From sequence record NC_024125.2: a stretch of DNA of 64,000 bases; one strand, 5' to 3'. The translations under genes and the position numbers were made by a program. This stretch comes from Escherichia phage vB_EcoM_112. The notes under the pieces were generated by a model. That model made no database searches, was not told the origin of the DNA, and worked only from the letters and a program-made list of their open reading frames with translations. Each line of letters begins with the position of its first letter. The first letter of the stretch is position 1. Positions 32,148-32,287 of the stretch are shown one piece after another.

Positions 32148-32287
32148 TTCTTCTCTCTAAGTTTGGGCCGTTCCATGGCGCATGAATTGTCCATTTCTGT
32201 ATTTACCCATTACCGCACTTAGGCTCGACCTTATTACAGGTTGGCGGGAATCCCTCATAGAATCATGAGGTCCAGGTTGTTCCCATA

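Follow-up and report, generated by a model that had tools for sequence, protein, structure and literature searches.

GOLLD and ROOL are orphan structured RNAs of phages and prophages that often lie by tRNA genes. Both are hundreds of nucleotides long, are represented in Rfam and are found chiefly in prophages, of Firmicutes among others. Concerning T4, a review from 2010 recorded no riboswitch or trans-acting small RNA that had been functionally characterised (PMC3014915). The small non-coding T4 RNAs encoded with the tRNA genes, RNAC and RNAD (species 1 and 2), remain unexplained (PMC3014915). A conserved intergenic sequence of another kind is PeSL, a short GC stem-loop joined to an early promoter, which is present in many copies and has a role in DNA recombination (PMC2839356, PMC4122927). 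In addition, a catalogue from 2023 holds 8,495 unnamed phage RNA candidates from IMG/VR (PMC10690425). Here we describe an intergenic element of Escherichia phage vB_EcoM_112 (NC_024125.2), a Tequatrovirus of the RB14/T2 type. As with RNAC and RNAD, it lies in or by tRNA clusters in most lineages outside the T4-like phages; unlike them, it spans several phage families, and a covariance model of the element found no sequence or structure similarity in the rnaC/rnaD region (~37.7-38.2 kb). It shares with PeSL the nature of a conserved intergenic T4-type sequence with a stem-loop (PMC2839356, PMC4122927). No similarity to GOLLD or ROOL was seen, and all copies of the element that we found were in phage records or phage-like contigs. 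We found no description of it in the literature; an anonymous entry among the 8,495 catalogued candidates is possible (PMC10690425).

The window, the whole stretch of DNA analysed, is 64,000 nt long. The element lies in a non-coding spacer at 32148-32287 (-), as judged from the ORF map, the alignment to PHROG 1488 and BLAST conservation. Upstream on this strand is the gene for an Ip4/ipIII-like internal virion protein (32288-32761 (-); DUF7412, PHROG 3155), and downstream is vs.8, a P-loop gene (31608-32147 (-); PHROG 1488); the lysozyme gene e is at 32856-33350 (-). The limits of the spacer given in the preliminary description proved correct: the Ip4 stop codon occupies 32290-32288 (-), with the element starting 3 nt past it, and the vs.8 start codon ATG, which forms the 3' boundary of the leader, occupies 32147-32145 (-), leaving a gap of 140 nt. 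The spacer had also been called GC-rich, and its GC content in 100-nt windows was indeed 0.44-0.48, against 0.31-0.35 on either side. A scan found neither promoter nor terminator consensus inside the spacer, which fits the earlier statement that it harbours no promoter, and no intrinsic terminator (GC-rich hairpin plus U tract) was present in or after it. ARAGORN and the Rfam tRNA model gave no tRNA at 32148-32287. Pfam and PHROG searches provided no function for vs.8 or for the genes adjoining the element in the Vequintavirus Murica. Read on the (-) strand, the spacer consists of a 5' hairpin domain, a three-way-junction core and a conserved tail that makes up the vs.8 5' leader. The observation of a structured, GC-rich spacer is confirmed as a whole; the preliminary description had centred on a peripheral hairpin, and the defining part is a near-invariant three-way junction 3' of that hairpin.

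The core, which defines the family, comprises 41 nt (32205-32245 (-)) and was delimited with a covariance model and pair statistics. It contains the helices P1, P2 and P3 and their joiners, and its shared form on the (-) strand is NNN-(A/U/C/G)-ACCU-GURNNA-AGGU-CGA-GCC-NNN-G(N)GC-GGUAA-(pairing nucleotide)-R-N'N'N'. The covariance model (R1) matched 32201-32250 (-) with 69.2 bits (E 4e-21). This was the sole copy: no second copy or paralogue was found in the 64-kb window, the rnaC/rnaD region included, and the next-best model score, lying elsewhere, was at most 10 bits. The 5' side of P1 (32242-32245 (-)) is the strand GCC (32245-32243) followed by A32242, which pairs with U32209; the 3' side (32205-32209 (-)) is U32209, the bulged purine G32208 and GGU (32207-32205). 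The P1 pairs 7-47, 8-46 and 9-44 of our alignment A3 were paired in 53-54 of its 54 distinct sequences with 3-5 pair types each, and the bulge was G or A in every sequence. P2 is the hairpin ACCU-GUAAUA-AGGU (32228-32241 (-)), in which 32238-32241 pair with 32228-32231 around a loop of the pattern G-U-R-N-N-A; all of its pair cells (100%) were paired. A U-A pair of P2 becomes A-U in Pseudomonas phage KIL4, and an A-U pair becomes G-C in the divergent second copy of L073. When the inner C-G pairs were freed in the search pattern, no variants of them appeared, and they were invariant in 39 of 39 sequences. The joiner J2/3 is CGA (32225-32227 (-)), replaced by CAA in the Klebsiella phage KpCHEMY26, CGG in the coliphage EcoPhCCP1 and CA in second copies. 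P3 is a mini-hairpin, GCC-UAA-G(U)GC (32215-32224 (-)), in which 32222-32224 pair with 32218, 32216 and 32215. Six distinct sequences, drawn from at least 4 lineages, have U-A instead of C-G as the middle pair, and intermediates with a single change are absent. The bulged nucleotide is deleted in Vibrio phage F92 and L038; the second copy of L082 has the clean hairpin GCC-CGC-GGC. J3/1, GGUAA (32210-32214 (-)), is invariant in the 25-sequence alignments; elsewhere we found GAUAA in L102 and one added nucleotide in four other sequences. No covariation of the kind expected of a kissing interaction was seen by eye between the P2 and P3 loops.

In alignment A3, which was made by aligning the 54 distinct sequences to the covariance model and is hence fitted to it, 96.5% of the pair cells were paired, compared with 83.3±0.9% in shuffles and 23-38% in slid controls. 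The covariation score was 0.344 against 0.091, a value that none of 500 shuffles reached. Double (compensatory) changes occurred in 7 of the 11 pairs; those in P2 come from one sequence apiece and those in P3 concern one pair only, and many of the aligned sequences are related by descent or transfer, so that the cell counts exceed the number of independent events. In an independent MAFFT alignment, the three inner P1 pairs were paired in 25 of 25 sequences, again with 3-5 pair types each. The data also assign the strand: 21 G.U cells would turn into A.C mismatches on the plus strand, which places the RNA on the window's minus strand. RNAalifold on a wide alignment recovered only P2 and an alternative register of P3 (129-141 and neighbours). 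This register was dropped in favour of 129-138/130-137/131-135, on the grounds that P3 shows a double change from C-G to U-A and a deletion of the bulge.

The periphery of the core is more variable. A stem that we designate P0, with the 5' strand GGGAA (32280-32284 (-)) pairing with the 3' strand UUCCC (32246-32250 (-)), surrounds a second hairpin, Pa, and directly abuts the 5' strand of P1. GGGAA/UUCCC is replaced by GGGAG/CUCCC in L098, by GGGG/CCCC in Murica and by GUACC/GGUAC in F92, and is weakened in L089 (AAGAA). Pa (32253-32270 (-)) is the hairpin written as CCTCAT-AGAATC-ATGAGG in the preliminary description; it is present at these positions, reads CCUCAU-GAUUCU-AUGAGG in the RNA and covaries in relatives. 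As a peripheral stem, it varies in length. A double change to CCUUAU/AUAAGG is found in L132 and U.G variants in L119 and L131, while Pa is shortened in L098 (CCUCA-AUAC-UGAGG) and L136. Murica, F92, KIL4 and the N4-like phages likewise have a 5' hairpin that adjoins P1, and in KpCHEMY26 the whole RNA is enclosed by a long outer stem.

On the 3' side of the core is a tail segment specific to T4-like phages, AUGCGCCAUGGAACGGCCC (32165-32183 (-)). It lies 17 nt upstream of the vs.8 AUG; the conserved segment is located 17-30 nt before the start codon. Its consensus, AUGYGCCAWGGAAYGGCCC, is near-invariant across T4-like genera and displays no covariation, so that the hairpin that GCCA and (U)GGC could form, with GGAA in the loop, is putative. 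We take such a hairpin, with GGA in its loop, to resemble a CsrA-type binding site. The GCCC(C) of the tail is complementary to the GGG of the P1 3' strand.

The preliminary description had named two comparisons that should decide whether the structure is real, folding energy against random shuffles and conservation in relatives, and they gave different answers. The minimum free energy of the 140 nt on the transcribed (-) strand was -31.7 kcal/mol, no better than that of shuffled sequences (mean -31.4 kcal/mol, z = -0.09); on the opposite strand z was -1.40. Conservation, on the other hand, was clear, as 1,083 of 50,697 phage records matched the spacer alone, including phages unrelated to T4. 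Moreover, nearest-neighbour energies of the 50-nt core favoured a different structure. The junction was calculated at -0.9 kcal/mol, against -11.7 kcal/mol for an extended hairpin formed from the same nucleotides, in which ACC pairs with the GGU of GGUAA, the G-U of the P2 loop with the G-C of P3, and GGU with GCC. Almost every sequence could form this hairpin, but the pairs specific to it show one-sided changes only. We accept the junction over the extended hairpin because double changes fall in junction-specific pairs. All substitutions observed keep both folds. The three inner pairs that vary are all among the 5 of 7 pairs in which a double change preserves both structures, for which we estimate p ~0.29, and the preservation of both folds thus fits a two-state RNA only weakly.

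Phages unrelated to T4 share the ~40-nt core at 86-95% identity. It is present in T4 itself, in other Straboviridae genera, among them Jiaodavirus (Mineola), and in Vequintavirinae such as Murica, as well as in KIL4, F92, the N4-like Schitovirus KpCHEMY26 and the 44-kb coliphage EcoPhCCP1. When IMG/VR and metagenomes were scanned with a pattern, the set grew by Karam-like T4 relatives, further Vequintaviruses, contigs of N4-like type and several uncultured lineages of aquatic origin. The first pattern used for this collection returned mostly chance matches in GC-rich coding DNA and was abandoned; only L022 and L038 were genuine. By contrast with its spread among phages, bacterial origin or prophage copies found no support: a pattern scan of 185,579 bacterial and archaeal species genomes gave one chance match, which the model did not score, and no true copy, and BLAST found none in 5,426 complete E. 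coli genomes. Two host labels should not be counted towards the host range of the element. L152 (MG065662.1, 'Campylobacter phage A142') is classified as a Vequintavirus, is mislabelled and adds no lineage, and H37 ('Pseudomonas phage vB_PSGBLB0006') has a spacer of T4 type that is 96% identical and characteristic of E. coli phages.

The core was ~97% identical where the flanking vs.8 protein was only 36% identical: between the window and Mineola, whose vs.8 shows this identity, a single position differs in the 36 nt from ACCUG to GGUAA. Judged by sequence comparison, the element is under far stronger constraint than its neighbours. Across lineages we found no protein family common to the genes around it. 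In T4 it is placed between denV and vs.8. In T4-like genera in general, the upstream gene varies (Ip4 or denV) and vs.8 is nearly always downstream, a linkage that is strong but not absolute; in L076, a KPV15-like Jiaodavirus, the element and tail precede an Ip4-like gene (MKTYKEFITEA...) instead of vs.8. In Karam-like T4 relatives, the interval from denV to vs.8 contains two copies in tandem, spaced ~110 nt apart (L082 9019-9180 (+), L073 5252-5092 (-) and L145 361-522 (+)); the single copy of other T4-like phages is orthologous to the second, more divergent one. Of the origins that the preliminary description had offered for the spacer, a structured or small RNA is upheld by covariation and by conservation across phage families, an RNA processing site is a candidate reading, and a remnant is contradicted by the ~97% identity of the core and by the sequence being found next to denV in T4 and within other gene pairs in other phages. 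Owing to its location in T4, the element is not debris of a gene lost between Ip4 and vs.8; it is phage-specific and not a remnant.

Linkage to tRNA genes was evident outside the Straboviridae. A tRNA on the same strand is found within ~1.3 kb of the element in 10 of 13 such lineages, and none was seen nearby in the other three. The element is inside the tRNA cluster in KIL4, L038 and L126, and follows a tRNA by 37 nt in L149. In T4-like phages, it is ~5.6 kb from the tRNA cluster. In the window, ARAGORN predicts a 94-nt 'tRNA-Lys' at 37809-37902 (-) that the Rfam tRNA model does not confirm; the region corresponds to rnaC/rnaD in annotated relatives, has been called tRNA-Asn or tRNA-His by other annotators, and is most likely one of the tRNA-like stable RNAs of T4. 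Surroundings also differ in other respects. In L068-type Vequintaviruses, the element is flanked by two strong sigma-70 promoters (481-509 and 687-715). A repeated motif, CCCYUAGAGGGCUUGAWAGUGC, is found on both sides of the element in Vequintaviruses (L068 516-560 and 640-680; flanks of L002 and L088) and could be a phage-specific promoter, terminator or processing signal. In EcoPhCCP1, the element comes after the endolysin gene, and 12 nt separate its end from a promoter. At 2553-2660 (+) of this genome (L151), the sigma-70 promoter TTGACA-17-GATACT comes straight after the element and, ~70 nt on, is followed by a GC hairpin with a T9 run, an arrangement suggestive of a short transcription unit of its own, possibly for a second small RNA. 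In KpCHEMY26, the element is situated in 1 kb of DNA for which no gene is annotated. After the tRNA cluster of this phage (L150, 2369-3371), long complementary arms that are repeated, AGUGCUCUUUYCGUUGUG ... CACAACAGRUAAGAGCAY, enclose differing interiors, one of which is the element, and may represent a series of processed small RNAs.

Annotations over the element suggest coding in some records. In T4 (AF158101.6, 64253-64912; L006 947-1606; corresponding to window 32148-32258), the annotated vs.8 runs 40 codons into the element. A 9-nt duplication in T4 (CTTATAGAG) removes an in-frame TAG found in most relatives. Other records show a 'hypothetical protein' over the element, or even a 'large terminase subunit' (Sfk20). 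We conclude that the gap is not coding, because of the length differences of 4 and 6 nt in the hairpin among relatives, the in-frame TAG in most of them and a PHROG profile that begins at the short vs.8 start. A 33-codon ORF is present at 32157-32258 (-), and the T4 frame is open into vs.8 and is so annotated; nevertheless, the open frame in T4 is the product of the duplication, PHROG 1488 aligns from residue 3 of the short vs.8 onwards, invariance is equal at all codon positions of the core, and other phages have this core among tRNAs. A small protein, or an N-terminal extension of vs.8, is thus a reading to which we attach next to no weight.

Comparison with known RNA families gave no match. 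With Rfam 15 (4,227 models), only tRNAs in the window passed the gathering threshold, and at E <= 10 nothing relevant appeared over 32050-32400 or at the element in 9 other loci. A parallel was noticed by eye with the 530 loop of 16S rRNA (helix 18, 518-536), where CCA-[GC AGCC GC]-GGUAA-U-A-helix corresponds to C-N-A-[GC...GC]-GGUAA-U-R-helix in the element. The match covers only ~12 nt, the element has the additional hairpin P2, and an 8-mer match such as that with helix 18 is expected by chance about once. The covariance model did not match E. coli rrnH at 16S positions 500-545, so that mimicry of helix 18 is unsupported by the model search and the resemblance is a lead only. Taking these results together, we consider it very probable, at the least, that the spacer is a functional structured RNA of an undescribed family.

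What the RNA does can be approached from its structure and surroundings. Like the purine and TPP riboswitches, which contain three-way junctions, it has a conserved junction, a covarying P1, a competing fold, a position in the 5' leader in T4-like phages and tandem copies. A ligand or factor might then toggle the junction against the extended hairpin or the GGCCC tail and so control vs.8 expression in T4-like phages, or transcription running on into tRNA genes in other lineages. This would agree with the variable upstream gene and the downstream vs.8 of almost all T4-like phages, with a T4-like-specific tail situated between core and ribosome-binding site and able to pair with P1, with two mutually exclusive folds that every substitution keeps, and with a junction that is only marginally stable alone, as in ligand-stabilised aptamers. 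The element does possess a conserved aptamer-like core with covarying helices; unlike the purine and TPP riboswitches, however, it has neither a coherent class of downstream genes, a terminator, a platform sequestering the ribosome-binding site, nor a family match. vs.8 is downstream only in T4-like phages, and elsewhere there are tRNAs, promoters or unannotated DNA. In addition, the tail does not covary, L076 lacks vs.8 at this position, and the argument from two folds is statistically weak by our own count. We therefore regard a riboswitch-like cis leader as rather unlikely. Somewhat less probable still, in our view, is a small self-cleaving ribozyme of a new kind, or a different self-processing module, that would cut polycistronic early or tRNA transcripts. 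Hammerhead, twister, pistol and HDV-like ribozymes in phages share such anatomy and context: the element is a ~45-nt three-way junction with ~20 invariant junction nucleotides and varying outer stems, has no fixed gene partner, and occurs in scattered contexts in phages only, near tRNA clusters and occasionally in tandem. No cleavage site could be inferred, and no Rfam ribozyme family matched even at E <= 10. The hammerhead in particular was considered and rejected, since in spite of the junction its core CUGANGA...GAAA is absent; the joiners of the element are none/CGA/GGUAA+R, compared with CUGANGA/GAAA/UH in the hammerhead.

Simpler roles account for less of the data. The element might serve passively as an RNase P, E or III entry site or as a 3'-end protector of the upstream message, with no function specific to a partner. 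Its start just past the Ip4 stop, and its placement directly after denV in T4 and after the endolysin gene in EcoPhCCP1, are in line with this possibility, as are the long outer stems in the N4-like phage, which resemble RNase III substrates, and the 5' hairpin followed by N-CCA in several lineages, in which we see a likeness to an acceptor-type minihelix. Phages of Escherichia, Klebsiella, Pseudomonas, Vibrio and aquatic hosts all keep ~20 nucleotides invariant, which a signal of this kind would not require. Covariation links the CC of CCA to its P1 partner, and the element of L068 has its own promoter instead of following a gene. We hence judge a passive signal to be quite improbable. As for the DNA level, the element could be a remnant of a lost gene, a target or co-conversion tract of a homing endonuclease, or a PeSL-type cassette. 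The tRNA regions of T4-like phages are known homing sites and contain nuclease genes, HNH endonuclease genes lie within 1-2 kb of the element in KIL4 and F92, and transfer could account for the very high identity between families. Explanations of this type are essentially excluded by compensatory changes and by G.U pairs that fit one strand only, and we place them close to the bottom of the scale. No endonuclease gene is near the element in T4-like phages, Vequintaviruses or KpCHEMY26, and the element sits between differing gene pairs. The PeSL cassette was rejected by its definition (PMC4122927), as the element has no promoter, is present as a single copy in the 64 kb and in each genome, and exhibits RNA covariation.

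The explanation to which we lean, by a little, is that the spacer holds the T4-group copy of a phage RNA family whose junction binds a partner and which is made as a module along with tRNAs. The element would be transcribed from the minus strand within the Ip4-to-vs.8 message. In its 5' half, the stem 32280-32284/32246-32250 would surround the Pa hairpin, and in its 3' half (32205-32245), the freely covarying P1 would hold P2 and P3, joined by CGA, GGUAA and the bulged purine. The folded junction would be the working part, a surface or pocket for a partner that many hosts share, the candidates being a core host protein, a tRNA and a small molecule. The RNA may persist as a discrete species, a self-contained module produced together with the phage tRNAs, and in T4-like phages this module, lodged in the vs.8 leader, may also gate vs.8. 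We prefer an autonomous module because the element is independent of the genes around it, has promoters or closing stems of its own in some lineages, and keeps its junction invariant across hosts. The position of the element almost always just upstream of vs.8 in T4-like phages, which fits a role in cis, speaks against autonomy, and this part of the explanation, a function deduced from comparison, we hold at slightly under an even chance. The single-sequence folding energy and the unfavourable balance between junction and extended hairpin likewise count against the explanation as a whole.

These results have consequences for the annotation and the biology of T4. The start of vs.8 in T4 is over-extended into the element, and the small 'hypothetical proteins' called over it in several records should be corrected. 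T4 is the best-studied phage, yet it carries a 41-nt junction that is kept nearly letter for letter across several phage families, in a region that, for T4, we assume to be dispensable in the laboratory. Such constraint across hosts, with no protein partner, suggests that the RNA interacts with a universal component of infected cells. As the element is short and present in genetically tractable phages, its function can be tested directly. We tentatively raise the possibility, on present evidence doubtful, that it represents a new class of small functional RNA of virulent phages including T4: a two-state junction, either a three-way junction or an extended hairpin, that senses or binds a component universal to cells (a metabolite, a tRNA or a factor of the translation apparatus) or works as a new self-cleaving ribozyme. 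If so, it would be the first riboswitch- or ribozyme-type RNA known in T4 besides the group I introns.
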